A stretch of 26,673 nt of DNA from a phage: assembly GCA_014436445.1 (NCBI GenBank), contig GCA_014436445.1_4089.1; one strand, 5' to 3'. The translations under genes were made by a program, and so were the position numbers. This document shows positions 2,269-23,790 of this stretch, one piece after another. Positions within the stretch are counted from its first letter, which is position 1, and each line of letters begins with the position of its first letter. The notes beneath the pieces are model-generated. The model saw only the letters and a list, made by a program, of their open reading frames with translations, did not search any database and had not been told where the DNA came from.

Positions 2269-2356
2269 AATGTTTTACTCCTAAAGGTGCGGGAGAACTA
2301 TTCCCCCGCTCTATGTAAAACATTATACATTATCTTGTAGTACTGTCAAATAGTTT

Positions 2357-2614: not shown

Positions 2615-2689
2615 TATGTTTCCCCTTGTAGTTAGTAAAGTTATTACATCAGTACTATCAAGCTATGTCAATAGTACTGAAATAAAACT

Positions 2690-2914: not shown

Positions 2915-2982
2915 TTTAGTACTCCTTATTAGTGGGGGAGGATATCTCCCCCTATGCAAAACATTATACTTTGTTTTAGTTA

Positions 2983-3246
2983 TTATGCAAGTACTTTTTT
3001 CATATAAACATTGTATTCTACACCGCCGTAACCTTCGCAGATGATATGTTTTGAGTTATCACGTTTGCACATCGTAAAGGCATCGTTGACGTGTTTTGCA
3101 TTTTCCAGGGCAACATCACCGATAGCGGCACATACTGAACTAATAACGATATTCCGCAAAGTACTGGTATCATTAGCGGTCATAGTAGTTTGCAGTACTA
3201 CGTTGTCGTATACGTGTGCATTGATAGTGATTTCGATAGTGTTCAT
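2983..3246 (-). CDS. hypothetical protein (87 aa)
   Basis: Track ORF; AGGAGA Shine-Dalgarno; hairpin leader and TTGCAT/TATAAT promoter at 3266-3330. Confidence 0.6.
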   Translation of the reverse strand: MNTIEITINAHVYDNVVLQTTMTANDTSTLRNIVISSVCAAIGDVALENAKHVNDAFTMCKRDNSKHIICEGYGGVEYNVYMKKVLA

Positions 3247-3334
3247 GGTGTATCTCCTGGACTTGAGGGGAAACCATTTCCCCCCTCTCGATATAAAACA
3301 TTATACGTTAATCTAACTACAATGCAAGTACTTT

Positions 3335-3526
3335 TTAAATTTTATTTCCGATATAGTCCGGCCTATTCTTTTCGGTCATACGCTTTGCTAATGTTTGCAT
3401 ATAGCTTATCGCGTTTAAGGTGTCTTCCTCCAGGGATGAATCAACATAATCAGGATCATTCTTCACCTTGCAATGATTATGATAGCGTAGTACTGCCAGT
3501 ACTTTTTTAACTTCTTCAACTGTCAT
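3335..3526 (-). CDS. hypothetical small protein (63 aa), overlaps the upstream stop by 4 nt
   Basis: Track ORF; start and stop overlap with 3523..3795 suggests translational coupling. Confidence 0.5.
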   Translation of the reverse strand: MTVEEVKKVLAVLRYHNHCKVKNDPDYVDSSLEEDTLNAISYMQTLAKRMTEKNRPDYIGNKI

Positions 3527-3795
3527 AATAAGTATTCCACTTCGTTAGCTTTCAGGTTAGTATCGATCATCAGTGGTTTTTTGTAGTCCACAAAACGATT
3601 AGTTTTCTCGATAGCGAAGCCCATATAATCCAGTTTGCTTACAGTACATTCATTCTTAAAAACTTCTTTCGCGGCATTGATGGCTGATTCAATTGATAAC
3701 CGCCCATCTAAATTAATGTTACCAAATGATCCACCAGCAGAAGTAGGATTACCGTTCATATCTTTAATAATCATAGTAGCGGAGTAGCTGGACAT
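3523..3795 (-). CDS. hypothetical protein (90 aa), first gene of a two-gene operon
   Basis: Track ORF; leader hairpin GGGGAGAACTATTCTCCCC and TTGACA/TATAAT promoter at 3816-3880. Confidence 0.6.
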   Translation of the reverse strand: MSSYSATMIIKDMNGNPTSAGGSFGNINLDGRLSIESAINAAKEVFKNECTVSKLDYMGFAIEKTNRFVDYKKPLMIDTNLKANEVEYLL

Positions 3796-3878
3796 AATTT
3801 TGTTTCCTTTTATTGTGGGGAGAACTATTCTCCCCTTGATGTAAACTATTATACAGTACTGATATACTTTGTCAATAC

Positions 3879-4100
3879 TTAATTACGTTTAAAATGATAT
3901 GTACCGTTATCATCCTGTACGCCCCATACTGATTTACCATCAACACCAGTGAAGCCGGATTGTAATTCAATATGGAAACCATTATTATCAACTACAAAAA
4001 CTTTTTTATTTTCATCCCGATAACATTGATATTCTGAATCAACATTAAAGGCCGCATCATTCAGAAGATTGGAAGCGTAAATGCAAGTCATTGTAGTCAT
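3879..4100 (-). CDS. hypothetical small protein (73 aa)
   Basis: Track ORF 3879..4175 trimmed to the ATG at 4100, which has an AAGGAA Shine-Dalgarno; the longer form overlaps the leader hairpin at 4118-4140. Confidence 0.55.
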   Translation of the reverse strand: MTTMTCIYASNLLNDAAFNVDSEYQCYRDENKKVFVVDNNGFHIELQSGFTGVDGKSVWGVQDDNGTYHFKRN

Positions 4101-4321
4101 GATTTTATTCCTTATTGCCAGGGAGAACCGTTTCCCCCTCTCGATATAAAACATTATACTTGATTCTAAGTACAATGCAAGTACTTTTTATCAAATAGTT
4201 TTCAGTACTGAATACTTATATAATATATACATTTATGCACCCTGTGGGTCAGTGAGCTATCTCTCAATGAATATATAATAGCAAAGGGACTGACCGGAGT
4301 CAATCCCTTTTTTAATCTTTT

Positions 4322-4906
4322 TTATCGTGTTATAGTTACGGCTTTTACATCACGCTTTTTATAGTACTGATTCCAGATATTGCGGGTTAAACCGTAATCA
4401 AGTACTTTAATAAGGCCGTTGCGATCCTGGCCGATATTCTGTTTTCTGATATCTCTTATCGTCAGTGTTGATAAGGTATCATCAACGTGTTGTAGTGCAT
4501 CAGCAAAGCGGTGCTGGCGTTCAATGGCATTACGTTTAATATTGTACTTTAATTCGTTGCACGCGTTAACGTGCTTTACACTGCCTTTACTTGCAGTACT
4601 CAACCGATCCATAACAATAAACATATTATCAGGATCGCTTAAATGCATATGCACTTTAGCGAAGAACTGTTTCAACTGAGGGCGGTCATAGTCTAAAAAA
4701 TTCCATACCCTACATTCTGTTTCATTTTGTTCTACACCCGCATCACAATTCGCGACCTTGATCACTAACCGATCATTTAAAGCGAATACAATACGGGAAG
4801 AACCCGCACCGATGATCTCCAGACCAGCTAACCGACAAGCTGAAAGGATCTCTTTGTTGGTTTCCATTTCTGACAGTGTACGGATGAATTTAGTATAATT
4901 ACGCAT
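4322..4906 (-). CDS. minimal protein-kinase-like protein (194 aa)
   Basis: Track ORF trimmed to the ATG at 4906 (AAGGAG Shine-Dalgarno). Motifs in order: glycine-rich loop IIGAGSSRIVF, beta3 lysine LVIKV, catalytic-loop-like IRDIRKQNIG (compare HRDLKPENI), DYG about 20 residues later (compare DFG). The protein ends soon after DYG. Confidence 0.55.
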   Translation of the reverse strand: MRNYTKFIRTLSEMETNKEILSACRLAGLEIIGAGSSRIVFALNDRLVIKVANCDAGVEQNETECRVWNFLDYDRPQLKQFFAKVHMHLSDPDNMFIVMDRLSTASKGSVKHVNACNELKYNIKRNAIERQHRFADALQHVDDTLSTLTIRDIRKQNIGQDRNGLIKVLDYGLTRNIWNQYYKKRDVKAVTITR

Positions 4907-5180: not shown

Positions 5181-5238
5181 TTTGTTTTCCCCCGTGTTGG
5201 TATAGATACATAGTACTAAAACATTTGAGTACTGTCAA

Positions 5239-5457
5239 TTAGATAATATTATATTTCTTAAAATAAAATGCGTCCTGTGTTGGTTGATACTCGATACCGT
5301 TCCCGTTATTGACTTCAACTAATAAACCTTTGTCAATTAGTTTTTTAATAGTACGATACCCCTGTTGAAAATTGGTAAAATGTGAATCATTACGAAAGGT
5401 ATAACCGTGCTTAACTGCTTCATCAATAGTTTTCTTTTCGATTTTAGATAATTTCAT
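5239..5457 (-). CDS. hypothetical small protein (72 aa), possibly a winged-helix DNA-binding protein
   Basis: Track ORF trimmed to the ATG at 5457 (MKLSKIEKKTIDEAVKHGYTF...); the TIKKLIDKGLLVEV segment resembles a winged-helix recognition helix and wing. Weak. Confidence 0.45.
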   Translation of the reverse strand: MKLSKIEKKTIDEAVKHGYTFRNDSHFTNFQQGYRTIKKLIDKGLLVEVNNGNGIEYQPTQDAFYFKKYNII

Positions 5458-5513
5458 TTTGTTTCTCTCTCTGTGTTGGTATAGATACATAATACTAAAA
5501 CAATTGAGTACTG

Positions 5514-5768
5514 TCAACGTGATATTAGTTTTATTTTTTTATTGTATTGTTGGTGTTCATATAGATTAATTTTTCCAGTACTCTCGATCACTATTCTATT
5601 GTTAGTGTCTACGTCGATTACACGTAGTTTCCCGTTGCTTAACTTCCTAGGCAATAGACTACCATTAATAAACTCATTAGCAAGCTGTACGGCCTTTGTG
5701 ATGATTCTCTGTGGGGCTTTATAGTGTACCCGTAATACATTATCGTTTGATAGTTGAACCTTAATCAT
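5514..5768 (-). CDS. hypothetical protein (84 aa)
   Basis: Track ORF; preceded by the hairpin at 5783-5807. Confidence 0.5.
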   Translation of the reverse strand: MIKVQLSNDNVLRVHYKAPQRIITKAVQLANEFINGSLLPRKLSNGKLRVIDVDTNNRIVIESTGKINLYEHQQYNKKIKLISR

Positions 5769-7139: not shown

Positions 7140-7205
7140 TTTGTATTCCTCTTTGTGGTTTATGTAAGTATTATACTCGTTTAATTTCTATTGTCAAACT
7201 ATTTT

Positions 7206-7281
7206 ATCAGGGGAGGTTTTCGTATGTCTTACTCCTGGACTACTTAACGGGGAGTTACTTGTTTCGTTCCCCGTCCTGATG
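7206..7281 (-). ncRNA. candidate structured RNA or leader element, copy 1 (copy 2 at 17522-17597)
   Basis: A ~76-nt element bounded by the inverted termini ATCAGG...CCTGAT, with an internal CGGGGA...TCCCCG stem, transcribed from the TTGCAT/TATAAT promoter at about 7283-7320. It differs from the 17522-17597 copy at only 4 positions. Confidence 0.35.
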
Positions 7282-7462
7282 TAAAACATTATACTTGATT
7301 CTAAGTACAATGCAAGTACTTTTTAAAAATAGTTTTCAGTACTTGATAGTACTAGCCACCAGCATATAATAGATACATTTATGCACCCTGTGGGCTGATT
7401 TGTTTCTATGCGTATATAATAGCAAAGGGACTGACCGGAGTCAATCCCTTTTTTAAATCTTT

Positions 7463-7612
7463 TTAAACTTGTTTTGGGTTGCGATATGTGATAGCGTTCG
7501 GGTACATTTGTTTAATGTTATTCCATGCCTGGTTAACATTGTAACCACTTGATCGAATCAGTTGGTTACTACCGACACCTTGAAACACTACTTCAAATAA
7601 GAATTCTTTCAT
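7463..7612 (-). CDS. hypothetical small protein (49 aa)
   Basis: Not in the track. GAGGTG Shine-Dalgarno; followed by the terminator repeat at 7424-7453. Confidence 0.4.
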   Translation of the reverse strand: MKEFLFEVVFQGVGSNQLIRSSGYNVNQAWNNIKQMYPNAITYRNPKQV

Positions 7613-8101: not shown

Positions 8102-8186
8102 GTTTCTTTCCTCTTAGTGGGGAGAATCATTTCTCCCCTTCATGTAAACTATTATACAGTACTACGATGCTTTGTCAAATACTTTT

Positions 8187-8375
8187 TTAAAGTTTATGAA
8201 TCAATTCTTTATCTAAGCGATAGCGAACATTATTGATTGTAACTGCATTGTTTTTAATGCTACGCTGTACAGGTCCACCAGCAATAACAAACGTTGCCTT
8301 ATTGCCCCGAACGATGATAGCACTTCCAGGATTACCAAAATCATCTTGTACTAAAATACTTGATAAGTTTTGCAT
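8187..8375 (-). CDS. hypothetical small protein (62 aa)
   Basis: Track ORF; leader hairpin and promoter at 8390-8450. Confidence 0.55.
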   Translation of the reverse strand: MQNLSSILVQDDFGNPGSAIIVRGNKATFVIAGGPVQRSIKNNAVTINNVRYRLDKELIHKL

Positions 8376-8454
8376 TTGTCTTTCCTTGTAGTGGGGAGAA
8401 CTATTCTCCCCTTCATGTAAACTATTATACAGTACTTAAAACTAAATGCAAGTA

Positions 8455-8811
8455 CTAGGATAAAATCATTATAGGATATTCACAGTTAATCAGTACTTCA
8501 AAACCAAAACTTTCATACCATTCTTTAAGATTAAACTCGTTATCTTCTCCCGTATCGCATTCTAAGATGATACAATCTGAATCATCGGCGGCATCAATAA
8601 AGGCATTCATTAATTCAGTACCTTCACCGTTACCGCGATTATCGGGATCAACATAAAGAGAATCAATAAACGCTACACGATCATAATCAAGATCCGGTGC
8701 AACAATGCCACGTTTAACAAACCAGTACTGCAATTGTGCTACTTTGCCTTGTACTTGATAGCCAGTGATCTCACCATTGTCTGTAGTACGCGTGATATGT
8801 TGTATACCCAT
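8455..8811 (-). CDS. small protein with a GNAT acetyltransferase-like motif (118 aa)
   Basis: The segment LYVDPDNRGNGEGTELMNAF resembles GNAT motif A (the acetyl-CoA-binding R/Q-x-x-G-x-G/A loop), but the protein is shorter than a typical GNAT. GAGGA Shine-Dalgarno; TTGACA/TATAAT promoter at 8835-8870. Confidence 0.5.
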   Translation of the reverse strand: MGIQHITRTTDNGEITGYQVQGKVAQLQYWFVKRGIVAPDLDYDRVAFIDSLYVDPDNRGNGEGTELMNAFIDAADDSDCIILECDTGEDNEFNLKEWYESFGFEVLINCEYPIMILS

Positions 8812-10007: not shown

Positions 10008-10187
10008 TTAGCGGTAATCGTCGTATGCTTTATTAACCTGGCGAATGTAACTTTCAAAGGCTTCGTCTACCGTTTCATACTCCCGAACATAATCACCATA
10101 GGAAACTACATACATCCCTTTTTGATCTTCAAACGTCATGATGATAGAATCCAGGCCGATGATTTCAGTTTTTGCGATAATAGCCAT
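10008..10187 (-). CDS. hypothetical small protein (59 aa)
   Basis: Track ORF 10008..10259 trimmed to the ATG at 10187 (AAGGAA Shine-Dalgarno); the extension would cover the promoter (TTGACA, 17 nt, CATAAT) and leader. Confidence 0.5.
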   Translation of the reverse strand: MAIIAKTEIIGLDSIIMTFEDQKGMYVVSYGDYVREYETVDEAFESYIRQVNKAYDDYR

Positions 10188-10278
10188 TTTAGTATTCCTT
10201 AAATTAATATGCGTTGTCTTGATAAAAGTTATTATGCCAGTACTATCAAACGTTGTCAATAGTACTGTGATAATATTT

Positions 10279-10491
10279 TTAGTTAATGATAGTCAGTGTA
10301 AAATTGTAATCCCCTGCCTGGTATAGTACTTTATCGCCGAACGTGCCAACACGTTTCATATTGCAATAGATACCCATAACATTTTTTACATCTTTGATAT
10401 TCCGAACGCCAGTGATATCCTTGTTGAAATTTTCATGATCAGAAAATAAAACTTGTTTTGCATTTTTCAGTACAGTGCGGATATTAGCCAT
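10279..10491 (-). CDS. hypothetical small protein (70 aa)
   Basis: Track ORF; leader hairpin GGGGAGAACTATTCTCCCC and TTGACA/TATAAT promoter at 10511-10575. Confidence 0.6.
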   Translation of the reverse strand: MANIRTVLKNAKQVLFSDHENFNKDITGVRNIKDVKNVMGIYCNMKRVGTFGDKVLYQAGDYNFTLTIIN

Positions 10492-10586
10492 TTTGTTTTC
10501 TCTCTCTGTTAGTGGGGAGAACTATTCTCCCCTTGATGTAAACTATTATACAGTACTAAAAACTATTGTCAAACTATTTTTTAATA

Positions 10587-10928
10587 TTATTCGAAATCTT
10601 CTGGACCGGACTGATAATCATCTTCACCGTATGCACTTTCTAACTTCTCGCCAGTATGATCATCAGTTAGTGAGTCATCCTCATAGTTCACGTCTACGCC
10701 CGTGATGTAAAACTGGCTATCGTCTGGATCATTGAAATTAATTTTCTGAATGTTTACAATAACTGTATTGATACCCAGGACACAGCCATCAGCCGTTACA
10801 AAGTACTGATATTTTTCACATCCACCACTATTGAAACCGTAATTGATTTCGGCCCGACCATCATTTAAACGCAGTGCCTGAGCGATGATTTCGTTTTCAA
10901 AGTTAGATTGAGCAATTGCAATAGTCAT
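10587..10928 (-). CDS. hypothetical protein with a strongly acidic C-terminal tail (113 aa)
   Basis: Track ORF; C-terminal ~40 residues are rich in D/E (YEDDSLTDDHTGEKLESAYGEDDYQSGPEDFE); leader hairpin and promoter at 10947-11010. Confidence 0.6.
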   Translation of the reverse strand: MTIAIAQSNFENEIIAQALRLNDGRAEINYGFNSGGCEKYQYFVTADGCVLGINTVIVNIQKINFNDPDDSQFYITGVDVNYEDDSLTDDHTGEKLESAYGEDDYQSGPEDFE

Positions 10929-11157
10929 GATTCGTTTCCTTATTACCAGGGGAAACCGTTTCCCCTTGCGATGTAAAACATTATACGCCTATTGAGATAG
11001 TATGCAAGTACTTTTTATCAAATACTTTAAAATAGTTTTCTGTACTCAATCATTATACAATAGATACACTCCTGCACCCTGTGGGCTAGTGAGCTATCTC
11101 TCAATGAATATATAATAGCAAAATGGCTGACCGAAGTCAACCACTTTTTCATTTATT

Positions 11158-11286
11158 TTTAGCTTTCAGAATCGCCGCCTTTCGCGTCATGCCTTGCTTG
11201 ATGTACTCCTTTACTTTCGCTTTACGTGCTTTCGCTTTATCTGCTTTCGTTTTAGGAGTACTGTAAATTAAACCGTTAGGATTCAT
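11158..11286 (-). CDS. hypothetical very basic small protein (42 aa; MNPNGLIYSTPKTKADKAKARKAKVKEYIKQGMTRKAAILKA)
   Basis: Not in the track. GGTGA Shine-Dalgarno; lysine- and arginine-rich; followed by the terminator repeat at 11120-11148. Confidence 0.35.
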
Positions 11287-11525: not shown

Positions 11526-11608
11526 TTTGATTCTCCTAGTATCGGGGAGAACCATTCCCCCCCCCTCTATGTAAACAATTATACAGTACTGAAAACTAAT
11601 TGCAAGTA

Positions 11609-11851
11609 TTATTTTAAACTTTGTGCGACTAATTTCGCACGGTCAATCATATACTGCCATTTTTGGATCTCTTCTGGCAGAAAACGATATTCACCAATCA
11701 CAATAGTGATACACTTTTCAGCCTGGTCAATGTATGTAGTATCAATCTCAACCTGAACGGGTACACGTTCGCCGTATTCAGTACCAGGGACAATGCAATC
11801 ATTATCATAAGTAACCGTAAGTGCGGTATCTTTAATTAAAATAGTTTCCAT
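11609..11851 (-). CDS. hypothetical protein (80 aa)
   Basis: Track ORF 11609..11902 trimmed to the ATG at 11851 (GAGGAAAG Shine-Dalgarno); leader hairpin GCGGGAACTATTCCCGC at 11870-11888. Confidence 0.55.
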   Translation of the reverse strand: METILIKDTALTVTYDNDCIVPGTEYGERVPVQVEIDTTYIDQAEKCITIVIGEYRFLPEEIQKWQYMIDRAKLVAQSLK

Positions 11852-11919
11852 TATTCTTTCCTCGTTATAGGCGGGAACTATTCCCGCTCTCGATGTAAAC
11901 AATTATACAGTACTAAAAA

Positions 11920-12129
11920 CTAATTGCAAGTATTATTTTCTAAAAAATGTTTGTATGCTTCATCAACCACTCTTTCGATAACATACGCTAACGGCACGTA
12001 TCCAACTACATGACTACAATAAAAAGGACTACGATTAGAATCATCGTATGCAAATACTTTTTCAGGATCTGCATCAATCACATACATATTAACCTTTAAG
12101 ATGTCGATCTTATCCTGTACAGTAAGCAT
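11920..12129 (-). CDS. hypothetical small protein (69 aa)
   Basis: Track ORF 11920..12207 trimmed to the ATG at 12129, one nucleotide after the stop of 12131..12301 (coupled). Confidence 0.45.
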   Translation of the reverse strand: MLTVQDKIDILKVNMYVIDADPEKVFAYDDSNRSPFYCSHVVGYVPLAYVIERVVDEAYKHFLENNTCN

Positions 12130-12130
12130 A

Positions 12131-12301
12131 TTACGCCGCCTTATCAGTACTGGCAACCGGACGGATACGGGCCATTTCCTGGGCTTGTTCCACACTGTAA
12201 CGCTCATAAAGGCGGCATTCTTCCGGTGTTAGCATTGCATCAATACGTTTCATTGGTTTAATGATGCTTTCAACTTCATTTAGTACTTGATTAACATTCA
12301 T
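12131..12301 (-). CDS. hypothetical small protein (56 aa)
   Basis: Track ORF 12131..12334 trimmed to the ATG at 12301 (GAGGA Shine-Dalgarno). Confidence 0.45.
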   Translation of the reverse strand: MNVNQVLNEVESIIKPMKRIDAMLTPEECRLYERYSVEQAQEMARIRPVASTDKAA

Positions 12302-12702: not shown

Positions 12703-13047
12703 TTAAAGATCTTTTTTGCGTTTAACATCACTAACAGAACTATAAACAGTGATATTATTATCACGGCAAAAACGGGAAAGATAAGAACCGCGTAAAAACT
12801 CTTTACCTTCCATATTAATAACCTTGCTAAATTCTTCCATTGCTACAGTGTCAAAATGATCCCCGTATCCATATTGGAACGGCACGTTTACTACTTCAAT
12901 AAAATTACCATCAATTTCTACGTCTACACTTAAAGAGAAATAAGTGTTACCATATGAAGCCTGGAACCAACGCCGAGCGGCAATATGTACAACTTCAACA
13001 GAAGACAGGTTGATATTTTGTGCTGAGATAGTGTTGATGTTAGCCAT
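12703..13047 (-). CDS. hypothetical protein (114 aa), paralog of 6326..6649
   Basis: Track ORF; family motifs as for 6326..6649; promoter of the TTGACA, 17 nt, CATAAT class inside the 13042-13138 repeat. Confidence 0.6.
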   Translation of the reverse strand: MANINTISAQNINLSSVEVVHIAARRWFQASYGNTYFSLSVDVEIDGNFIEVVNVPFQYGYGDHFDTVAMEEFSKVINMEGKEFLRGSYLSRFCRDNNITVYSSVSDVKRKKDL

Positions 13048-13138
13048 TTTTTGTTTCCTCTTAGTTGTCTTGATAAAATCTATTATGCCAGTACTATCAA
13101 ACTATGTCAATAGTACTGTGATAATAATTTTACTTACT
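13042..13138. repeat. ~96-bp direct repeat, copy A (copy B at 13337-13432)
   Basis: Near-identical promoter, leader and first-codon cassette (CCATTTTTTGTTTCCTCTTAGTTGTCTTGATAAAATCTATTATGCCAGTACTATCAA...) flanking gene 13130..13342; the copies differ only at about 2-3 positions. Confidence 0.7.
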
Positions 13139-13342
13139 TTGCTTTGATGCTTTATGTTGTGCAACTGCCATCACTACATCAGCACGAACAAAGTTAGCAA
13201 CCGTATCAGTATAATATTTGATTGCATCGTCAATATCTGCGAACATCCGATACATTCCGCACCATGATACTTTATAACCCGCTTTCACTTGTTCCAGTTT
13301 AACCAGTGAATTGTTTACTTTGATTTTTGTAATGATAGCCAT
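13130..13342 (-). CDS. hypothetical small protein (70 aa)
   Basis: Track ORF; Shine-Dalgarno and promoter lie within repeat copy B. Confidence 0.55.
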   Translation of the reverse strand: MAIITKIKVNNSLVKLEQVKAGYKVSWCGMYRMFADIDDAIKYYTDTVANFVRADVVMAVAQHKASKQSK

Positions 13343-13423
13343 TTTTGTTTCCTCTTAGTTGTCTTGATAAAATCTATTATGCCAGTACTATCAATCTATG
13401 TCAATAGTACTGTGATAATAATT

Positions 13424-13567
13424 TTACTTACTTTTTGCTTTCTTTATTGCTTCCACCTGGTCGGCCCACTCTTTACCCCATACTTGAGCGTTATAGTGAT
13501 ACTGACAAAGAGCAACGCCCCGTTTCAAACCAGTGATAGATTTTTTACCACATTGACAAGTTTTCAT
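13424..13567 (-). CDS. hypothetical small Cys/His-containing protein (47 aa; MKTCQCGKKSITGLKRGVALCQYHYNAQVWGKEWADQVEAIKKAKSK)
   Basis: Not in the track. GAGGA Shine-Dalgarno; leader hairpin and TTGCAA/TATAAT promoter at 13585-13650; CxC...CxxH could bind a metal. Confidence 0.4.
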   Translation of the reverse strand: MKTCQCGKKSITGLKRGVALCQYHYNAQVWGKEWADQVEAIKKAKSK

Positions 13568-13652
13568 ATTAGTTTCCTCATTATCAGGGAGAACCATTTC
13601 TCCCCTTGATGTAATGTATTATACTTTATCTGATTTACTTTGCAAGTACTTT

Positions 13653-13880
13653 TTAGTTTAATTCATCCAGGCATAAGATACGATCTACGCCGAGATCCGT
13701 TAAGCTAATGGTTGGCACTTGATAGGTTTCAATGTATTCTACACTAGCCCACTGACCGAACTCATTCACCGCCCAGGTATTCATTGCAAAATGTAATTCC
13801 GCACCTTTATTATTAGTAATTACAGCAACAGTAGAAGAATTGCCAGTAGTACCAGATACGCGAGTGATTACGATAGCCAT
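13653..13880 (-). CDS. hypothetical protein (75 aa)
   Basis: Track ORF; promoter TTGACAATAGTTTTAAGTACTG..TATAAT at 13905-13950. Confidence 0.55.
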   Translation of the reverse strand: MAIVITRVSGTTGNSSTVAVITNNKGAELHFAMNTWAVNEFGQWASVEYIETYQVPTISLTDLGVDRILCLDELN

Positions 13881-14330: not shown

Positions 14331-14355
14331 AAAAAAGCCCACTGTATAAGTGGGC
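14331..14355 (-). terminator. intrinsic terminator
   Basis: GCCCACTTATACAGTGGGC stem followed by TTTTTT on the minus strand, directly after the stop of 14378..14860. Confidence 0.6.
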
Positions 14356-14377
14356 TAGTGATTCAGTACTTTAATTG

Positions 14378-15055: not shown

Positions 15056-15082
15056 CAAAAAAGCCCACTGCTTATAGTGGGC
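15056..15082 (-). terminator. intrinsic terminator
   Basis: GCCCACTATAAGCAGTGGGC stem followed by a T-run on the minus strand after the stop of 15104..15403. Confidence 0.6.
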
Positions 15083-15103
15083 TAGTGATTCAGTACTGAT
15101 GTA

Positions 15104-15873: not shown

Positions 15874-15958
15874 TTTATTTTCCTCATTACCAGGGAGAAC
15901 CATTTCCCCCTTGATGTAAACTATTATACAGTACTAAAAACTAATTGCAAGTACTTTT

Positions 15959-16162
15959 TTAATTTAATTGCTTTAAAACATACTCAAAGACACCACGCAC
16001 ATCATTGATCATCGCCTGGCGGTTAGCAGGTAACGCATCAGGATCGCCACTATCCCAGGCATTGATAAAACTCCCCAAATCATGATAGATTTTATTCTGT
16101 AAGCCGATCAACTGCAATTCTTTTTCTTCAAGCTCTTTGATACGTTCAATTAAATCACTCAT
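15959..16162 (-). CDS. hypothetical small protein (67 aa)
   Basis: Track ORF 15959..16198 trimmed to the ATG at 16162 (AAGGA Shine-Dalgarno), 17 nt after the stop of 16180..16461. Confidence 0.5.
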   Translation of the reverse strand: MSDLIERIKELEEKELQLIGLQNKIYHDLGSFINAWDSGDPDALPANRQAMINDVRGVFEYVLKQLN

Positions 16163-17453: not shown

Positions 17454-17521
17454 TTTGTAACCCTCATTCAGTGGTTGATGTAAGTATTATACTTGTTTAC
17501 TTTCTATTGTCAAACTATTTT

Positions 17522-17597
17522 ATCAGGGGAGTTTTTCGTAAGTCTTACTCCTGGACTACTTAACAGGGAGTTACTTATTTCGTTCCCCGTCCTGATG
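17522..17597 (-). ncRNA. candidate structured RNA or leader element, copy 2
   Basis: Differs from the 7206-7281 copy at only 4 positions; same flanking promoters. Confidence 0.35.
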
Positions 17598-17752
17598 TAA
17601 AACATTATACGCCTTTAAACATAGTTGGCAAGTACTTTTTGAAAATAGTTTTTAGTACTTTCATATAGATACACTCCCGCACCCTATGGGCTATCGCCTA
17701 GTGTCCGGCTTGTAAGTATTATCTCACTAAGCCGGATAACTGTCAAGTACTT

Positions 17753-19144: not shown

Positions 19145-19332
19145 TACTACATAGACGCGAGAAAGCGGATACCCCTGGGGGTGCGGAATTACGCCCAAAA
19201 TTCAGTAAATTTAAAAAGGATACACTCCCGCACCTTAGCAGGTCATAGCACTTTCTCAGTACTGAATCATAGTACCATAGTACGCCCCAGGATGGCAAGC
19301 AAATTAATTAAAACTTTTTGCGTTTAGGGTAT

Positions 19333-19360
19333 TGCTTTATTTTTTCAGTACTGCTATAAT
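19333..19360 (+). promoter_or_regulatory. plus-strand promoter (TTGCTT, 16 nt, TATAAT)
   Basis: Followed by GAGAAAGACTCTAGCCCACCGGGTGCATAA, i.e. the same leader motif as at 15552. Confidence 0.45.
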
Positions 19361-19457
19361 ATTTTCATCAAGTCGAGAAAGACTCTAGCCCACCGGGTGC
19401 ATAATTGTATCTAAAATTCAGTACTAGATTATTTTTTAAAATTATTCATCCAGGCGG

Positions 19458-19486
19458 TTGACATTGCCCCCAGTTTATTAGATAAT
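19458..19486 (+). promoter_or_regulatory. plus-strand promoter (TTGACA, 17 nt, GATAAT) reading toward the iteron array
   Basis: Consensus elements; downstream lie a GGGGAAACCATCCCC hairpin and the iteron-like array. Confidence 0.45.
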
Positions 19487-19580
19487 GATTCCAGATTCAG
19501 AAAAATCTAACTCCAGATACTGCGGGGAAACCATCCCCACGCGGTAGGGGAACTATTGGAAAAACAAAATAAAATTTTGA

Positions 19581-19712
19581 TTTAGCCGTCTATACTTCCA
19601 GACGTGTAACCATCTAGCCGTTTAGCCGTCCAAACGTCTAGCAGTACAGCCATCTAGAAATCTAGCCATCCAGCCGCCTAGAGGGATAGCCATCTTTACT
19701 TCCAGCCATCTG
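19581..19712. repeat. iteron-like array of about 8 YAGCCRTC octamers with interspersed GTCTAG/CATCTAG
   Basis: TTTAGCCGTC occurs exactly twice (19581, 19621); TAGCCGTT, CAGCCATC, TAGCCATC (twice), CAGCCGCC and CAGCCATC follow within about 130 bp of non-coding DNA. Confidence 0.55.
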
Positions 19713-19881
19713 GAGGTCTAGACATCTCTACGTCTAAATTTAACCTAGGGTTACTACGCCCAAAATCCGTCAGTACTATACCATAGATCTATCTTTAAGA
19801 AGGGAGTATTCAGTACTCCCACAATAGCCCTCACTGTTACTGTAGGAGGATGAAGACTATCATGTAGTACTGAATACTGTT

Positions 19882-19911
19882 AGTGGATAATCCACCAGCT
19901 TGTGCTGGTGG
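19882..19911. promoter_or_regulatory. DnaA-box-like 9-mer inside palindrome TGGATAATCCA, followed by hairpin CCACCAGCTTGTGCTGGTGG
   Basis: AGTGGATAA matches the DnaA box (TGTGGATAA, the complement of TTATCCACA) at 8 of 9 positions; an 8-bp-stem hairpin lies immediately 3'. Confidence 0.3.
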
Positions 19912-20398
19912 CATAATGCGTTAGATTAATATCAGTACTGCTACCATTCTGTTAATAACAGTACTGTTCATATTACGAAAAAAGAGGTTATAAAAAGATG
20001 TACCACCCATAGGAGGAACTATCCTTTCAGTACTGTCTCACGACAGGAGGTAGAGTGAATGAATTGTTTGCGGCAACTCATCTCTCTATGTAGAACATTA
20101 TACAGTACTGAATCATAATGTCAATAGCTTTCTTTCATTATTCAGTACTGAAATCGTATAATCTGTATCGCTACAAAACTCATTATATCCCACAAATCCT
20201 ATATGTCCCAACGTAAATTTCAACTTTCGAAGATCCAACTTTTATTTCATAGGTACTCCAAAATTTTTAGGATCGAGATTTAGGATGGAGTACTAACCAA
20301 CTTTTTGCTGGAGCCTCAAGGGGTAATTGAATTTTACCCCGAAGGGTAAAGGGGTAATTGAAATTAAGGTGAAAGTAATAATTCAGTACTAATCATTG

Positions 20399-20628
20399 CG
20401 TGATTACTTTTGATTACATTTGATGTAATTTGCAAAATGGAAAAGGAGCTTGGAAACTACAAAGTACGGCAGACTTCCTCTGCCTACTTAGTGGCATATC
20501 AGTACTGCTACGTTCTTGATTAAACGTGAACATTCCTGTACTCTAGTACTCAATACTAATCACTACCGTGCGTATGAATGATTACATAAATGTTTATATA
20601 TGATTACTTATGACTACCTATGATTACG
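20399..20628. repeat. two clusters of helically phased (A)TGATTAC repeats (20399-20428 and 20578-20628)
   Basis: GATTAC at 20401 and 20411 plus GATGTAAT at 20421; ATGATTAC at 20578, 20601 and 20621 plus ATGACTAC at 20611, with 10-bp spacing in the second cluster. Confidence 0.5.
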
Positions 20629-20743
20629 GGGTTTAGCCTGGGGAGAATCCTAGTGATCGCATTTGTCCAGGCTGAATTTTAACATATGCAACATATGTTA
20701 AAGCCTGTATAATGCTTCCACTACGGAGCTTCCCCTAGCTATA

Positions 20744-20944
20744 TTACTTCCTATATATAATCATTAAGATATAGTAGTACTGATTGTACTGTACATTCTC
20801 TTTAATATTATAAGGGTCTATAGCAATCTCGGTACATCTGTTAAATGCATATCTATTAAATGCCAGTGGAATTATAGATCTAATCCATACTTGTTCATTT
20901 TCTTTTAGTTTACTTATATAGAATTCTTTATGTTCTTTATTCAT
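20744..20944 (-). CDS. small-protein paralog array, member 15 (66 aa)
   Basis: Track ORF; N-terminus MNKEHKEFY, central Cys motif (NRCTEIAI), C-terminus YYILMIIYRK. Confidence 0.6.
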   Translation of the reverse strand: MNKEHKEFYISKLKENEQVWIRSIIPLAFNRYAFNRCTEIAIDPYNIKENVQYNQYYYILMIIYRK

Positions 20945-20949
20945 ATTAG

Positions 20950-21135
20950 TTAGTGTCTGTATATAAGTAATAGTAAGAATACGTACTGCACATCTTCATC
21001 TTTAGTATTGAGTACTGTACGTATTGCGTCATTAAACAAGAATATAGTACTTGGGTCATGAGAATTTAAAGGGGTTCTGGGTACGGCATGTTTGTAGTTC
21101 CCTTTAACAAATTGTGTGTAGTATTCTCTATGCAT
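20950..21135 (-). CDS. small-protein paralog array, member 14 (61 aa)
   Basis: Track ORF; MHREYYTQF...LLLLIYRH. Confidence 0.6.
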   Translation of the reverse strand: MHREYYTQFVKGNYKHAVPRTPLNSHDPSTIFLFNDAIRTVLNTKDEDVQYVFLLLLIYRH

Positions 21136-21136
21136 A

Positions 21137-21322
21137 TTAGTACCTATATATTAGGGCGAGAATGTAGTACAATTCATATGGAATGTAATTTGGGGTGATC
21201 GCACACTGTGTATGGTAAATGAATTGTTCGGTATTTTTCTTATCCTTGATATCTATTGGGATTTGTGGTATAAGCATTTGGGAGTTTAGATCGAGATGGC
21301 TTAAGTAGAATTCTTTATGCAT
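21137..21322 (-). CDS. small-protein paralog array, member 13 (61 aa)
   Basis: Track ORF; MHKEFYLSHL...QCAI...YYILALIYRY. Confidence 0.6.
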   Translation of the reverse strand: MHKEFYLSHLDLNSQMLIPQIPIDIKDKKNTEQFIYHTQCAITPNYIPYELYYILALIYRY

Positions 21323-21331
21323 ATTGTTCTC

Positions 21332-21520
21332 TTAGAATACGAAAGCTAGGTACAGGGTATGATACAGTACTCGATGATAGCTGTCAAAATCTAGTATACA
21401 TGCTTTAGTGCACATAGTAAAGTACACTTTATCATTTTGTGCATTGATACCGCGAGGTTTATCTAATAGATTAGTTCTGAGGTACATTGGGAAATATTTT
21501 GTGTAGTATTCTTTATGCAT
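21332..21520 (-). CDS. small-protein paralog array, member 12 (62 aa)
   Basis: Track ORF 21332..21565 trimmed to the family-conserved start MHKEYYTKYF at 21520; ends ...YHTLYLAFVF. Confidence 0.6.
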   Translation of the reverse strand: MHKEYYTKYFPMYLRTNLLDKPRGINAQNDKVYFTMCTKACILDFDSYHRVLYHTLYLAFVF

Positions 21521-21521
21521 G

Positions 21522-21704
21522 TTAGTACCTGAATATAAGTAGGATAGTGTTATATAGCTGGTCATAACTACTACTATTTTCTATACTTCGTTCTATGCAG
21601 TTATTGAATCCCAGTACTGCCAAATCGTTATCCATAGGGACTTTATATCTGGCGTAGTGTTCAAAAATGCTGGGGAGAAATTGTGTGTAGTATTCTTTGT
21701 GCAT
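21522..21704 (-). CDS. small-protein paralog array, member 11 (60 aa)
   Basis: Track ORF; MHKEYYTQFLP...NNCIERSI...ILLIFRY. Confidence 0.6.
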   Translation of the reverse strand: MHKEYYTQFLPSIFEHYARYKVPMDNDLAVLGFNNCIERSIENSSSYDQLYNTILLIFRY

Positions 21705-21705
21705 A

Positions 21706-21891
21706 TTAGTACCTATATATTAGTAAAAGGATGTGATACAGTACTCGATTATAGTCGTCAATATATATCGAGGATTTAGTGCACTGAATGAAGTAGTCTT
21801 TTTCGTAGTTTTTTTCTATACCCAATGGTTCTGTTGGTACAAGGTGTTGGAGATACATTGGGAGTTTCTCTATGTAGTATTCTTTATACAT
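21706..21891 (-). CDS. small-protein paralog array, member 10 (61 aa)
   Basis: Track ORF; MYKEYYIEKLPMYLQ...QCTKSSI...YHILLLIYRY. Confidence 0.6.
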   Translation of the reverse strand: MYKEYYIEKLPMYLQHLVPTEPLGIEKNYEKDYFIQCTKSSIYIDDYNRVLYHILLLIYRY

Positions 21892-21900
21892 ATATTATCC

Positions 21901-22101
21901 TTAGTACTGGAACGCAAGGTACAGGGTGTGGTAAAGTTGTACTTGATAATTGTTTTCATTAGCTTCTTCATTAAGTACTTGTTCAGTACATGTACGGAAG
22001 TAATCAGCTTCATATATACAGTCAATACCGCGAGGTTCATCTTCTAATAGATTTCCTTGTAGAAACTTTGGTAGTTCTTTTATGTAGAATTCTTTATACA
22101 T
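21901..22101 (-). CDS. small-protein paralog array, member 9 (66 aa)
   Basis: Track ORF 21901..22164 trimmed to the family-conserved start MYKEFYIKELPKFLQ at 22101; ...RTCTEQVL...YHTLYLAFQY. Confidence 0.6.
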   Translation of the reverse strand: MYKEFYIKELPKFLQGNLLEDEPRGIDCIYEADYFRTCTEQVLNEEANENNYQVQLYHTLYLAFQY

Positions 22102-22765
22102 AGTTTGTAATATACGTAATGAGGTGATGCATTTTCTTATCAGTACTGATAATTTCCTGTACATGTTTTGTCAGATTGTACGCGTTTTTATAGAGTACTG
22201 GATTATCGATTACAGTACTGTACATGAATAGTTCTTCTTCCTGTAGTTCTTTGTGTTCTAGTTCTTTGAGGAATTGTAGTACTGTATCAGTTTCTTCTGT
22301 ACGTTGTGCTTGCCAGAAGTGCATATTCTCGTGTACTTTTTCTGCATCAGTAGAGTATATGCCACCCATTTGGAATTGTGCTGTATTGACATCGTGGGAG
22401 GTGTTACAATTCCCGAAGAAGTATGTATTCCCGAAGTATAGCATTAAAGTGCACGGGGTATTATCCAACTGCATATTGATGATGAAGGATGCGTTCTTTA
22501 GTACCTTTGTGCTCGTATTAGTACTCAATACTTTTAAATCAGTATTATAGATATTCATATAATGAACAGCTATATTATTTTTCTTCATGTACAATTCAAG
22601 GTTCTTTGATACGTTAACTCCATTTGTACTGGATTTTTCCTTTTTATTTCGTTTCTTTAGTACATTCGGGTGATACGTATATGCAGATGTAACTGATTCT
22701 GCCTGAATACTATTGAGGTACTTAAAGTGCTTAAGGTATTGTTTGCTGTGTGCATTAAGTTTCAT
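22094..22765 (-). CDS. 223-aa protein with an HExxH motif, embedded in the paralog array
   Basis: Track ORF; AAGGAAA Shine-Dalgarno; contains AEKVHENMHFWQA (HExxH, the zincin metallopeptidase signature); does not share the array-family termini. Confidence 0.55.
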   Translation of the reverse strand: MKLNAHSKQYLKHFKYLNSIQAESVTSAYTYHPNVLKKRNKKEKSSTNGVNVSKNLELYMKKNNIAVHYMNIYNTDLKVLSTNTSTKVLKNASFIINMQLDNTPCTLMLYFGNTYFFGNCNTSHDVNTAQFQMGGIYSTDAEKVHENMHFWQAQRTEETDTVLQFLKELEHKELQEEELFMYSTVIDNPVLYKNAYNLTKHVQEIISTDKKMHHLITYITNYV

Positions 22766-22775
22766 TTGGTTTCCT

Positions 22776-22955
22776 TTATATAGATGCCAGGGCGAGGATT
22801 TCCCTGTAGGGATTATCTTGTGTTAGTACAGCATAAATGCAGTTATTGAGATTAATATTTTTAGTACTTTTTGTTCCTAGTTTGTAGTACTTCACGAAGG
22901 TGTCGTACATGAAACGGTCTTTTATGGTTATACGTTCTCTATAGAATTGTTGCAT
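22776..22955 (-). CDS. small-protein paralog array, member 7 (59 aa; MQQFYRERITIKDRFMYDTFVKYYKLGTKSTKNINLNNCIYAVLTQDNPYREILALASI)
   Basis: Not in the track (59 aa). AAGGAA Shine-Dalgarno; central NNCIYAVL and C-terminal ILALASI fit the family. Confidence 0.5.
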   Translation of the reverse strand: MQQFYRERITIKDRFMYDTFVKYYKLGTKSTKNINLNNCIYAVLTQDNPYREILALASI

Positions 22956-22963
22956 AGTATTCC

Positions 22964-23146
22964 TTAAATAGCGATTAGTTTCATTACTTCTCTGTATGTG
23001 TACTTTTCGTTTTGTGCATCTCTTGTGACGACATATAGGAAGGTGTGTTTATCTTTTTTGTTCCCGCAATTGTAGAAAATATTGAACTTATTGAAGTTGA
23101 ATCTTTCGGCGTGTTGTAGTTTAGTTAAATAGAATTCTATATTCAT
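22964..23146 (-). CDS. small-protein paralog array, member 6 (60 aa)
   Basis: Track ORF; MNIEFYLTKL...YNCGN...MKLIAI. Confidence 0.55.
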   Translation of the reverse strand: MNIEFYLTKLQHAERFNFNKFNIFYNCGNKKDKHTFLYVVTRDAQNEKYTYREVMKLIAI

Positions 23147-23154
23147 TTTCTTCC

Positions 23155-23340
23155 TTACATTTCAATAAGTTTAAGTACTGCTCGGTACGTGTACTTAGTT
23201 GTTAGTGCTTCTTTAATAGAAATACAGAAGTAATGTTGTTTGTCTCTTATACTGCCGCGTTTGTAGTACCACACATGGGAGTTGTGACTGTACTTGTCTC
23301 TGTCGGATAGTTGTTGGTAGTAGTAGCTTATATGATTCAT
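23155..23340 (-). CDS. small-protein paralog array, member 5 (61 aa)
   Basis: Track ORF; MNHISYYYQQL...FCISIKEAL...LKLIEM. Confidence 0.55.
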   Translation of the reverse strand: MNHISYYYQQLSDRDKYSHNSHVWYYKRGSIRDKQHYFCISIKEALTTKYTYRAVLKLIEM

Positions 23341-23392
23341 TATAATGTAATTAGCCTTACTATATTAAAGTACTCGGTCCCTGGTGTACCTT

Positions 23393-23789: not shown

Positions 23790-23790
23790 A

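Follow-up and report, generated by a model that had tools for sequence, protein, structure and literature searches.

PeSL (promoter-early stem-loop) cassettes are known from the T4-type phages RB49/phi1, PST/T4 and nt-1/KVP40 (Arbiol et al. 2010, PMC2839356; Comeau et al. 2014, PMC4122927). Like the cassettes described here, they are conserved intergenic composites of about 100 nt, in which an upstream stop codon lies in A/T-rich DNA and is followed by sigma70-type -35 and -10 elements, a stem-loop that possibly overlaps -35/-10, an SD sequence and an ATG. In both systems many copies occur in a hyperplastic region rich in small ORFans; where one phage has an ORFan between two cassettes, a close relative has one chimeric cassette in its stead, and crossover points vary inside the cassette. 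Five placements have been described for the PeSL stem-loop (Arbiol 2010, PMC2839356), and one of them, overlap of -35/-10, is that of the present cassettes.

Integron gene cassettes and phage 'morons' resemble the present arrangement in that single genes move as units between conserved linkers and a moron brings its own promoter. However, the present cassettes are without integrase or attC site-specific chemistry and their junctions are variable and, in contrast to morons, insertion here would be targeted to homologous linkers. A further parallel is offered by host-takeover or pre-early gene blocks in long terminal repeats, namely the SPO1 terminal-redundancy module and the T5 first-step-transfer region. 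There, as in the present region, very small genes of unknown function are densely packed with strong host-sigma promoters in a terminal repeat. The repeated promoters of SPO1 and T5, however, are known mainly as expression signals and recombination joints with presence/absence variants are not a defining feature; these blocks also have no sequence relationship to the present cassettes.

The window, i.e., the whole stretch of 26,673 nt analyzed here, is the early, terminal-repeat-type region of an Asteriusvirus (121Q/PBECO4-like, 'Rak2-like') jumbo coliphage. All its close relatives are Asteriusvirus, and in vB_Ec-M-J the homologous region sits within an annotated 21.5-kb direct terminal repeat. 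The window is mosaic, its best coverage by any known phage being 85%, and no known RNA or tRNA was found in it. Its minus strand holds 44 strong sigma70-like sites compared with 7 hits on the plus strand, and each small gene in the region has its own strong promoter-like cassette. In Rak2-like phages, RpoD-like promoters with UP elements reportedly cluster in the terminal repeat and between short early ORFs (PMC5259590). The searchable literature on Asteriusvirus promoters, phAPEC6 promoters and AGTACT yielded no description of these cassettes.

As an earlier note on this DNA had observed, gene 13130..13342 is bracketed by near-identical direct repeats. A repeat search aligned 13048-13140 with 13342-13434 (93 nt, 99% identical, spacing 294), and exact comparison widened the repeat to 13041-13140 for copy A (100 nt) and 13336-13434 for copy B (99 nt), followed at each end by a few bases of weaker likeness (GCTTT after a 2-nt indel). 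Identity at 98 of 100 aligned bases cannot be chance. Copies A and B differ by one substitution (13101 A vs 13395 T) and by a one-base indel in a T-run that has 6 T in copy A (13047-13052) and 5 T in copy B (13342-13346); the T-run difference had been noticed before, whereas the "about two substitutions" given alongside it come down to one. A repeat census of the whole window placed this pair nearest to identity among families with stated identity, the next being a 62-nt pair with 97%.

On the minus (coding) strand, each copy leads from the upstream gene's last codons and stop through an A/T-rich stretch, promoter, leader and strong RBS to ATGGCTA (Table 1), the whole span from ..AGTAAGTAA (stop) to ATGGCTA being 99-100 nt. 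The earlier description as a promoter, leader and first-codon cassette hence holds, with the upstream gene's last codons and stop also inside. Both copies read TTGACA-17-CATAAT with a TG extension (TTGACA-17-TGgCATAAT; 13404-13376 and 13110-13082), which in terms of sequence match only gives 11/12 consensus positions, and A/T-rich DNA (AAAATTATTATCA) lies upstream. We infer promoter activity from these motifs, and both repeats appear to be copies of one conserved early-promoter cassette, termed class I. A repeat search also found an imperfect inverted repeat in each cassette, with CAGTACTAT / ATAGTACTG in its arms and with the -35 hexamer and the spacer between them. Folding gave -20.3/-20.4 kcal/mol for the cassette RNA (z=-4.0/-3.6) and -16.9 kcal/mol for the core 56-mer (z=-6.1), with z about -4.8 for the DNA. 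The stem overlaps -35 and -10, is A/T-rich and not polyG/polyC, and is followed by UUUUAU after the stem-loop; a terminator scan that needs at least 3 G-C pairs did not flag it. Class II cassettes in the window carry a G-rich/C-rich hairpin downstream of -10, and the one next to the repeat pair belongs to a 28-copy promoter family found in the census.

Table 1. Features of the repeat pair, its neighbors and further cassettes in the window.
Feature	Position	Strand	Remarks
Upstream gene	13424..13567	-	47 aa; 121Q gp280 homologue; Cys/His residues; predicted expression driven by class II cassette
Bracketed gene	13130..13342	-	70 aa; ATG start, TAA stop; homologue of 121Q gp281
Downstream gene	12703..13047	-	114 aa; PHROG 6246; '345-nt allele' of 121Q gp282
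Class I cassette, copy B	13336..13434	-	upstream of bracketed gene
Copy B, stop TAA of gp280-like gene	13424-13426	-	within GTAAGTAA 13424-13431
Copy B, first AGTACT	13406-13411	-	preceded by A/T-rich UP-like stretch
Copy B, -35 TTGACA	13399-13404	-	
Copy B, second AGTACT	13384-13389	-	
Copy B, -10 CATAAT	13376-13381	-	TG before it
Copy B, predicted start	near 13368-13370	-	
Copy B, RBS	13348-13356	-	AAGAGGAAA
Copy B, ATGGCTA	13336-13342	-	
Class I cassette, copy A	13041..13140	-	upstream of gp282-like gene
Copy A, stop TAA of bracketed gene	13130-13132	-	
Copy A, AGTACT, two sites	13112-13117 and 13090-13095	-	
Copy A, -35 TTGACA	13105-13110	-	
Copy A, -10 CATAAT	13082-13087	-	
Copy A, RBS	13054-13062	-	
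Copy A, leader patch	13047-13053	-	differs from otherwise identical sibling contig
Copy A, ATGGCTA	13041-13047	-	
Imperfect inverted repeat, one per cassette	13370..13425, also 13076-13131	-	from repeat search
Class II cassette	13585..13660	-	upstream of gp280-like gene; AAAAAGTACTTGCAA-16-TATAAT, then GC-rich leader hairpin GGGGAGAAatggTTCTCCC
Third class I copy	10213..10289	-	91% over 69 nt; 'long' leader; upstream of 59-aa ORF (10008-10187)
Fourth class I copy, partial promoter core	2643..2679	-	4 mismatches in 37 nt

By sequence comparison, the bracketed ORF is a real, conserved gene. It belongs to PHROG 35559 (E=1e-43). We found it in 19 distinct phages and its neighbor in ~35 jumbo relatives; only about one in two related jumbo phages has the bracketed gene. 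The AlphaFold model of its product (pLDDT 91) has four beta-strands and a C-terminal helix; there was no Pfam match to the protein and no significant PDB match to the model. Paralogy with the 70-aa ORF 10282-10491 and the 59-aa ORF 10011-10187 was rejected, BLASTP returning nothing and the PHROGs being different. A fold-level hint came from 59-aa proteins in the BFVD (TM 0.7-0.84, E~0.02), on which we base no claim of paralogy. None of six ORFs tested around the repeat exceeded the Pfam threshold; five fall into PHROGs of unknown function and one was without a PHROG match.

Comparison with related phages returned the two-cassette layout in several of them and a gene-less single-cassette form in others. 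The same gene lies between the same two promoter cores in the independently assembled A4, 121Q, Ecwhy_1, WPEC3 and vB_Ec-M-J. Two phage contigs inside E. coli assemblies share this architecture; over ~660 nt around the gene they match the window base for base, apart from a patch with three differences. The bracketed gene is missing and a single cassette is kept in seven relatives, the short-leader phages SHEFM2K, ph0011, phAPEC6, UE-S1 and SP27 and the long-leader phages slurp01 and G17. Compared with the window, SHEFM2K has a clean deletion of 294 nt, i.e., one period, and its single cassette is chimeric, combining the spacer SNP of copy B with the 6-A leader of copy A. The proposal that the repeats permit loss of the intervening gene thus finds support in relatives that lack exactly this gene and have one cassette instead. 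To account for the seven gene-less relatives, two or more separate deletions are needed, or else a single deletion after which the allele of the downstream gene was exchanged together with its leader; for each presence/absence event, deletion and insertion both fit.

Other exchanges end at cassettes as well. In 121Q-type phages, the 5' three-quarters of the downstream gene are swapped for unrelated sequence, and homology restarts at 13064 inside cassette A. The Vequintavirinae phage W70 carries the same gene (85% nt identity) between class I cassettes, and in a metagenomic contig cassette arrays bracket single small ORFs. Gene by gene, the closest relative of the mosaic window switches at every cassette, and 14 of 26 homology breakpoints are no more than 45 nt away from a promoter, compared with an expectation of 22% (p=4e-4). 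The boundaries of gene presence, absence and replacement among the relatives are hence shown, at the level of alignments, to sit in cassettes. Several breakpoints lie inside ORFs (12133-12171, 12728-12780), and non-coding breakpoints may also be favored because they are simply tolerated. The upstream gp280-like gene is missing in E9.1 and PBECO4 with only ~8 nt of common RBS sequence at the deletion joint, and long homology is thus not always used.

We consider it quite likely that early-promoter cassettes in Asteriusvirus separate small genes and act as portable homology for gene gain, loss and swap in the manner of PeSLs. The ~77-100 nt of near-identity could serve as a homology patch for phage T4-type recombination machinery and/or host RecA; homologues of UvsX, UvsW, gp46/47, endonuclease VII and gp32 have been reported in Rak2-like phages (PMC5259590). 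A crossover between cassettes A and B would delete a 294-nt unit made up of the gene and one cassette, which may be released as a small circle. Such a unit, complete with promoter and RBS, would be gained if the process ran backwards or if phages infecting the same cell exchanged DNA unequally, and short-patch conversion would keep the cassette copies alike.

The earlier note had taken the likeness of the two copies as the mark of a recent cassette duplication. A promoter-leader cassette doubled lately in this phage would indeed leave two near-identical copies, and A and B are 98-99% identical over ~100 nt and more alike than in A4, 121Q and Ecwhy_1, where the leaders differ. However, the 77-nt core stands at both positions in at least six relatives (six were found, with flanking genes diverged by 2-17%) and around the gene in the Vequintavirinae phage, and the window contains further copies (10213-10289 and 2643-2679). 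Across 14 phages the core is 96-100% identical, compared with 83-98% for adjacent genes and 84-91% for the bracketed gene. In these alignments, the core is shown to predate the divergence of the sampled relatives and to be better conserved than the genes between. The extra ~25 nt of identity corresponds to a leader variant also present on the downstream gene in E9.1, SHEFM2K and L019/L020, together with the three-difference patch, which argues for exchange and not duplication. Over ~660 nt, the window and the sibling contig differ solely by three changes, clustered in the copy A leader. As judged from this comparison, the only recent event is a short leader patch in copy A, by which near-identity was stretched from ~77 to ~100 nt. 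Two core SNPs occur in all four haplotypes, which are common to both paralogous positions; these shared haplotypes and the clustered patch suggest ongoing exchange between copies. We hence regard a recent tandem duplication as very improbable. The probability is negligible that the second copy is spurious and stems from collapse or expansion of a repeat in assembly, the danger pointed out at the outset. Such an artefact has nothing in its favor beyond the general risk of repeats in short-read assembly and is ruled out by the same architecture in at least eight independent assemblies, while copies A and B also differ from each other at defined positions. Movement of gene and cassette by a dedicated recombinase that reads the inverted repeat, in an integron/attC-like or MITE-like fashion, is hardly credible either. 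The element does contain a conserved imperfect inverted repeat, and gene-plus-cassette units are found in different contexts and different phage groups. Yet the junctions lie at varying points (core, leader or RBS), junction alignments contain no target-site duplication, and a scan of 6 ORFs around the repeat gave no match to any recombinase family; crossover anywhere in the homology is the outcome of general homologous recombination.

A regulatory reading draws on the hexamer AGTACT, which occurs twice per cassette and straddles the -35 hexamer. It is found at fixed offsets in 29 of the 44 promoters of the window, where it is 16x over-represented, and is the most over-represented hexamer (12-13x) in each of three sampled public genome stretches, from Asteriusvirus 121Q, Mimasvirus CBB and Alcyoneusvirus RaK2. 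In 121Q genes it occupies all three reading frames. In a metagenome pattern search, both AGTACT were kept in 33/33 cassette copies, while the bases between them vary. The central dinucleotides were left free in this search and read TA/TA in all 33 genuine copies, hence without compensatory change in the stem. Anecdotally, one W70 cassette copy has AGCGCT/AGTGCT. An IMG/VR scan returned 121Q itself only, and the searchable literature gave no mention of the AGTACT word bias. AGTACT as cooperative paired sites was rejected: in the window, spacings of 19-24 nt are only modestly enriched, which the promoters explain, and in CBB they are not enriched. A LexA-box reading of TACTG..CAGTA was likewise discarded, since by eye its spacing and CTG/CAG bases misfit the LexA consensus. 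One might propose that near-identity is held only by selection on function, the paired AGTACT palindromes serving a clade-specific DNA-binding protein as operator or activator and/or providing an attenuator hairpin, with recombination merely incidental. Conservation of spacer, UP region and initially transcribed region, not of the hexamers alone, fits this proposal, as do the AGTACT pairs kept in all metagenomic copies, their fixed promoter offsets, their clade-wide excess of 12-16x and hairpin folds with z=-4 to -6. It leaves unexplained, however, the indel and replacement boundaries and phylogenetic switches at cassettes, and also the polymorphisms common to paralogous copies and the clustered leader patch. 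As a sole explanation we find selection on function distinctly unlikely, although a regulatory site is compatible with a role of the cassettes as recombination joints and does not exclude it. Conservation of spacer and AGTACT positions beyond the need of a sigma70 promoter points to an additional constraint outside the recombination model. We may speculate, with considerable doubt, that AGTACT is the clade-defining site of an undescribed DNA-binding or DNA-processing protein of Rak2-like phages that controls early cassettes by shut-off or activation; this protein might also mark or organize the genome and could direct exchange preferentially to the cassettes.

Returning to the cassettes as portable homology, they share with PeSLs a sigma70 promoter with A/T-rich DNA upstream, a stable stem-loop, the stop-to-ATG span, many copies mostly next to ORFans and cassette-bounded indels with a chimeric cassette. 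In contrast, they occur outside the T4-like myoviruses, the group that defines the PeSL family; Asteriusvirus and other Rak2-like jumbo phages are only distant T4 kin, with just 21/38 T4 core proteins shared (PMC5259590). Moreover, the present region corresponds to the annotated terminal repeat of vB_Ec-M-J, its class I stem is A/T-rich from AGTACT palindromes where that of PeSLs is polyG/polyC, and the cassette is common to Vequintavirinae phages. Being known from sequence, the cassettes have putative promoter, terminator and mini-circle roles. Comparison with T4-type PeSLs gave no sequence homology, and the cassettes are therefore filed as a PeSL-like, analogous family and not as a PeSL homologue. 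By this analogy they match what is already known of cassette-joint shuffling in T4-like phages and would add a further case in another clade.

The idea of promoter cassettes as portable homology, by which early genes are gained, lost or swapped with expression intact, would thereby be extended beyond T4-like phages. Rak2-like jumbo phages show the corresponding pattern, and so does the exchange of jumbo phages with Vequintavirinae. In practice, small early genes between such repeats may be unstable in stocks, e.g., of phage-therapy candidates, and the cassettes could be used as natural 'landing pads' in engineering. Apart from this, the AGTACT bias gives a testable lead that, if true, would point to a clade-wide DNA-protein interaction. 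For the phages themselves, cassette shuffling may help to account for the mosaic early (terminal-repeat) region of these 350-kb genomes.

The homologue of 121Q gp281 is bracketed by two class I promoter cassettes, copy A and copy B. A repeat search of the window aligned 13048-13140 with 13342-13434 (93 nt, 99% identity, spacing 294 nt), and base-by-base comparison extended the repeat to the limits in the table; both analyses confirmed the near-identical direct repeats that the earlier note had described around this gene. The T-run does differ in length (six vs five), but the copies otherwise differ by one substitution (13101 A / 13395 T) and not by about two. An assembly artefact, raised earlier as a possible refutation, is excluded.

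All genes at the locus lie on the minus strand. Read in this direction, each copy starts with the upstream gene's final codons and stop (..AAA/CAA AGT AAG TAA), followed by an A/T-rich stretch AATTATTATCA, then CAGTACTAT and TTGACA as -35 hexamer, a 17-nt spacer with ATAGTACTG at its 3' end, and the -10 in G-CATAAT (extended -10, TGg-CATAAT). After AGATTTTATCAAGACAAC, the 3' part comprises TAAGAGGAAAC-A(5-6) and ATG GCT A. Both copies scored 11/12 with TG in the promoter scan. An imperfect inverted repeat with 22-nt arms and two AGTACT-bearing 9-mers surrounds the -35 hexamer; folded as RNA, it reaches -20 kcal/mol (z about -4), and its 56-nt core, after which comes UUUUAU, reaches -16.9 kcal/mol (z=-6.1).

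Features of the window, with positions and properties
Feature	Position	Properties
Class I cassette, copy A	13041-13140	minus strand
Class I cassette, copy B	13336-13434	minus strand
gp281 homologue, between the copies	13130..13342	minus strand, 70 aa
gp280-like gene	13424-13567	minus strand, 47 aa
Class I, further copies	10213-10289; 2643-2679	
Class II cassettes	13585-13660; 10515-10591; 8394-8470; 8121-8197; 3818-3894; 15893-15969; others	members of the 28-copy promoter family
ORF-bracketing promoter repeats	1522-1583 / 1839-1900	97%
ORF-bracketing promoter repeats	5194-5259 / 5473-5538	83%
ORF-bracketing promoter repeats	11569-11615 / 11893-11939	~91-94%
Dispersed repeat	7155-7294 / 17471-17610	140 nt, 95%
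Dispersed repeat	4193-4324 / 11030-11161	132 nt, 84%
Dispersed repeat	1964-2064 / 4223-4323 / 7364-7464	101 nt, up to 87%
Terminator cassette, repeated	14336-14370; 15062-15097	AGTACTGAATCACTAGCCCACnnnnnnnGTGGGCTTTTTTG; similar motif begins near 16833
AGTACT, examples	13090-13095; 13112-13117; 13384-13389; 13406-13411	
Gene-poor stretch	~19330-20740	a single ORF of at least 40 aa; rich in AGTACT (often tTCAGTACTGAa)
Tandem small ORFs	20744-24218	about fifteen, ~55-77 aa; ~190-nt periodic DNA repeats; 121Q gp249-265

We compared the locus in 14 relatives and extracted every class I cassette. The common order is gp279 - class II - gp280 - class I - gp281 - class I - gp282, and the window's gene order with the class I core flanking gp281 recurs in six phages: A4, 121Q, Ecwhy_1, WPEC3, vB_Ec-M-J and, taken together, two window-like phage contigs inside E. 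coli assemblies (L019/L020). Over the 77-nt core (stop codon to CAAGACAAC), 14/14 phages match the window at 96-100% identity, compared with 83-98% for the flanking genes and only 84-91% for the bracketed gene. The comparative evidence supports the reading as a promoter and leader cassette. In contrast, a recent duplication, as proposed in the earlier note, is rejected because the class I core stands on both sides of the gene in diverged relatives; on sequence comparison, the duplication is old. The variable part of the cassette is the leader. A 'short' leader (TAAGAGGAAA..) is always found upstream of gp281, and a 'long' leader ((AC)ATATTAATTTAAGGAATAC..) precedes the 324-nt gp282 allele and, in A4, also the 345-nt allele. 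The 345-nt allele is combined with the short leader in the window, E9.1, SHEFM2K, ph0011, phAPEC6, UE-S1, SP27 and L019/L020. The window's ~100-nt identity hence arises because both of its cassettes have the short leader.

That the repeats can serve as a deletion substrate, as claimed before, is supported by relatives that lack gp281 and kept a single cassette. In SHEFM2K, ph0011, phAPEC6, UE-S1 and SP27 this cassette has the short leader and precedes the 345-nt gp282 allele, in slurp01 and G17 it has the long leader and precedes the 324-nt allele. The two leader types imply no fewer than two independent deletions, or else a single deletion after which the gp282 allele was exchanged together with its leader. 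SHEFM2K is shorter than the window by exactly 294 nt, i.e., one period, and its cassette carries the spacer base of copy B and the 6-A leader of copy A; it is thus chimeric, with a crossover within the ~45 nt between them. In E9.1 and PBECO4, gp280 is absent and the class II cassette is joined to gp281 at the common GAGGAAAC RBS. BLAST censuses found gp281 in 19 distinct phages and its neighbour gp279, at no less than 80% identity, in about 35 jumbo relatives. In 121Q-type phages gp282 is partly replaced, and homology restarts at 13064, within cassette A. Over all comparisons, 14/26 distinct homology breakpoints lie at most 45 nt from a strong promoter (expected 22%; binomial p=4e-4), though tolerance of non-coding junctions would by itself produce some of this enrichment. 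The closest relative switches from gene to gene (gp280, 121Q; gp281, A4; gp282, E9.1; gp283, slurp01). Breakpoints with relatives at 15068 and 15111 adjoin the second copy of a repeated terminator cassette.

Two core positions are polymorphic (AAAATT/AAAAAT and TAGTTTG/TAGATTG). All four combinations are present, and across the phages each state turns up at either of the two paralogous positions; this is evidence that the copies recombine or undergo conversion. The L019 contig (assembly GCA_014685065.1) shares 96.4% identity with the window over 3 kb and is base-identical from ~12900 to 13565 save three clustered differences at 13047-13053. Here, in the copy A leader, the window reads GGAAACAAAAAATGG, like copy B and SHEFM2K, and L019 reads GGAAAT-TAAAATGG; the cluster looks like a short templated patch, in either direction. 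Three ~140-kb phages carry gp281 at 85% nucleotide identity. One of these is W70 (Vequintavirinae), where gp281 again lies between class I-type cassettes and has the homologue of ORF 10282-10491 upstream of it; in the window, that ORF is followed by the third class I copy and a different 59-aa ORF. W70 (137 kb) holds, at 2100-3620, an early block of gp279, gp280, the ORF 10282-10491 homologue and gp281 with the same cassettes at ~84-85% nucleotide identity, and this Asteriusvirus-type block indicates early-gene exchange between phage groups. In one W70 cassette, AGCGCT/AGTGCT replace the two AGTACT motifs. A pattern scan yielded further cassette variants from metagenomes, with one 3-kb contig featuring four cassettes around single small ORFs.

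The bracketed gene belongs to PHROG 35559 (unknown function), has no Pfam match, and its 16 homologues all stem from these phages or E. coli assemblies containing them. Its AlphaFold model (pLDDT 91) shows four beta-strands and a long helix; a PDB search gave no significant match, and the best BFVD matches were 59-aa uncharacterised phage proteins, one from RaK2 (TM 0.7-0.84, E~0.02). Judged by position, gp281 is an accessory early gene; many viable relatives do without it, which shows that it is dispensable. The gp280-like protein (MKTCQCGKK...CQYHY...) matches no PHROG or Pfam family; its Cys-x-Cys ... Cys-x2-His pattern suggests a tiny zinc-binding protein.

Closest to the window are Asteriusvirus genomes (121Q, PBECO4, A4, phAPEC6 and others). 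Coverage by any one record is at most 85%, at ~90% identity, so the window is mosaic and does not correspond to a listed phage. The homologous genes of vB_Ec-M-J fall within its annotated 21.5-kb direct terminal repeat, and several records contain the region twice, as expected if the terminal repeat was entered at both record ends. On the minus strand, 44 distinct sigma70-like sites match at 10/12 positions or more (13 perfectly), vs seven hits on the plus strand; the repeat search grouped the sites into a 28-copy promoter family with subfamilies. Class II has AAAAAGTACTTGCAA-16-TATAAT and, after it, a G-rich/C-rich leader hairpin GGGGAGAAnnnnTTCTCCCC; at the class II positions in the table it reads (AAAAAGTAC)TTGCAA or TTGACA, a 16-nt spacer, TATAAT, then gtttACATCAAGGGGAGAAnnnnTTCTCCCC. 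As similar pairs flank other small ORFs, the gp281 locus is the most nearly identical case of a general architecture. The segment between the third such pair (11609-11902) gives way to other sequence in 121Q and in most other relatives, the breakpoints falling at both promoters. In the related phage CBB, RpoD-like promoters with UP elements are reported to be concentrated among short early ORFs and the terminal repeat (PMC5259590). The longer dispersed repeats, kilobases apart, could support larger deletions or inversions, and the tandem ORF run looks like an amplified small-protein family.

The window contains 153 copies of AGTACT vs ~9 expected (16x), and no other 6-mer palindrome there exceeds 2.8x. 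Sampled stretches of three Rak2-like genera show a 12-13-fold excess: 221 vs 17 expected in 121Q (100-150 kb), 162 vs 14 in 50 kb of the Pectobacterium phage CBB (300-350 kb), and 83 vs 7 in 30 kb of the Klebsiella phage RaK2 (1-30 kb). In long non-early genes of 121Q only, it reaches 2.5 per kb vs 0.35 per kb expected, in all three reading frames. W70 lacks enrichment outside the shared early locus, with 5 vs 12 expected in the 50 kb of structural and replication genes sampled. AGTACT stands at fixed offsets in 29/44 window promoters, ending 1-2 nt upstream of the -10 hexamer (19/44) or overlapping or abutting the -35 hexamer (10/44), and both motifs are kept in 33/33 genuine class I copies recovered, while the intervening bases vary. 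This suggests that AGTACT is read by a putative clade-specific protein, which may be the reason for core conservation beyond sigma70 promoter needs. The motif goes unmentioned in the RaK2 and CBB papers, and our searches found no published account of it; as a clade-wide sequence word it merits its own follow-up. The gene-poor stretch, without tRNA or Rfam match, might encode a non-coding RNA or have a role in regulation or in the terminal repeat.

The cassette resembles the promoter-early stem-loop (PeSL) elements of T4-type phages. Stop codon, A/T-rich region, sigma70 promoter, overlapping stem-loop, SD and ATG fit the published definition, many copies occur in a hyperplastic ORFan region, and a flanked ORFan is swapped for one chimeric cassette in a relative. 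Published work on PeSLs demonstrated that adjacent cassettes recombine, with crossovers at variable points, and that ORFans are lost and mini-circles formed in this way (PMC2839356; PMC4122927). Rak2-like phages encode the T4-type recombination proteins UvsX, UvsW, gp46/47 and endonuclease VII (PMC5259590); homologous exchange at the ~77-100-nt cassette patches would thus be plausible. However, the phage clade is another one, there is no sequence homology to T4-type elements, the class I stem is A/T-rich and made of AGTACT palindromes, the region corresponds to the terminal repeat of a relative, and the cassette is common to Vequintavirinae phages. Class II, with its G-rich/C-rich hairpin in the leader just 3' of the -10, is nearer to the classical polyG/polyC stem-loop than class I. 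Our literature search found no description of such cassettes in Asteriusvirus or Rak2-like phages. The locus is a clear, well-documented case, in a new clade, of a mechanism already described.
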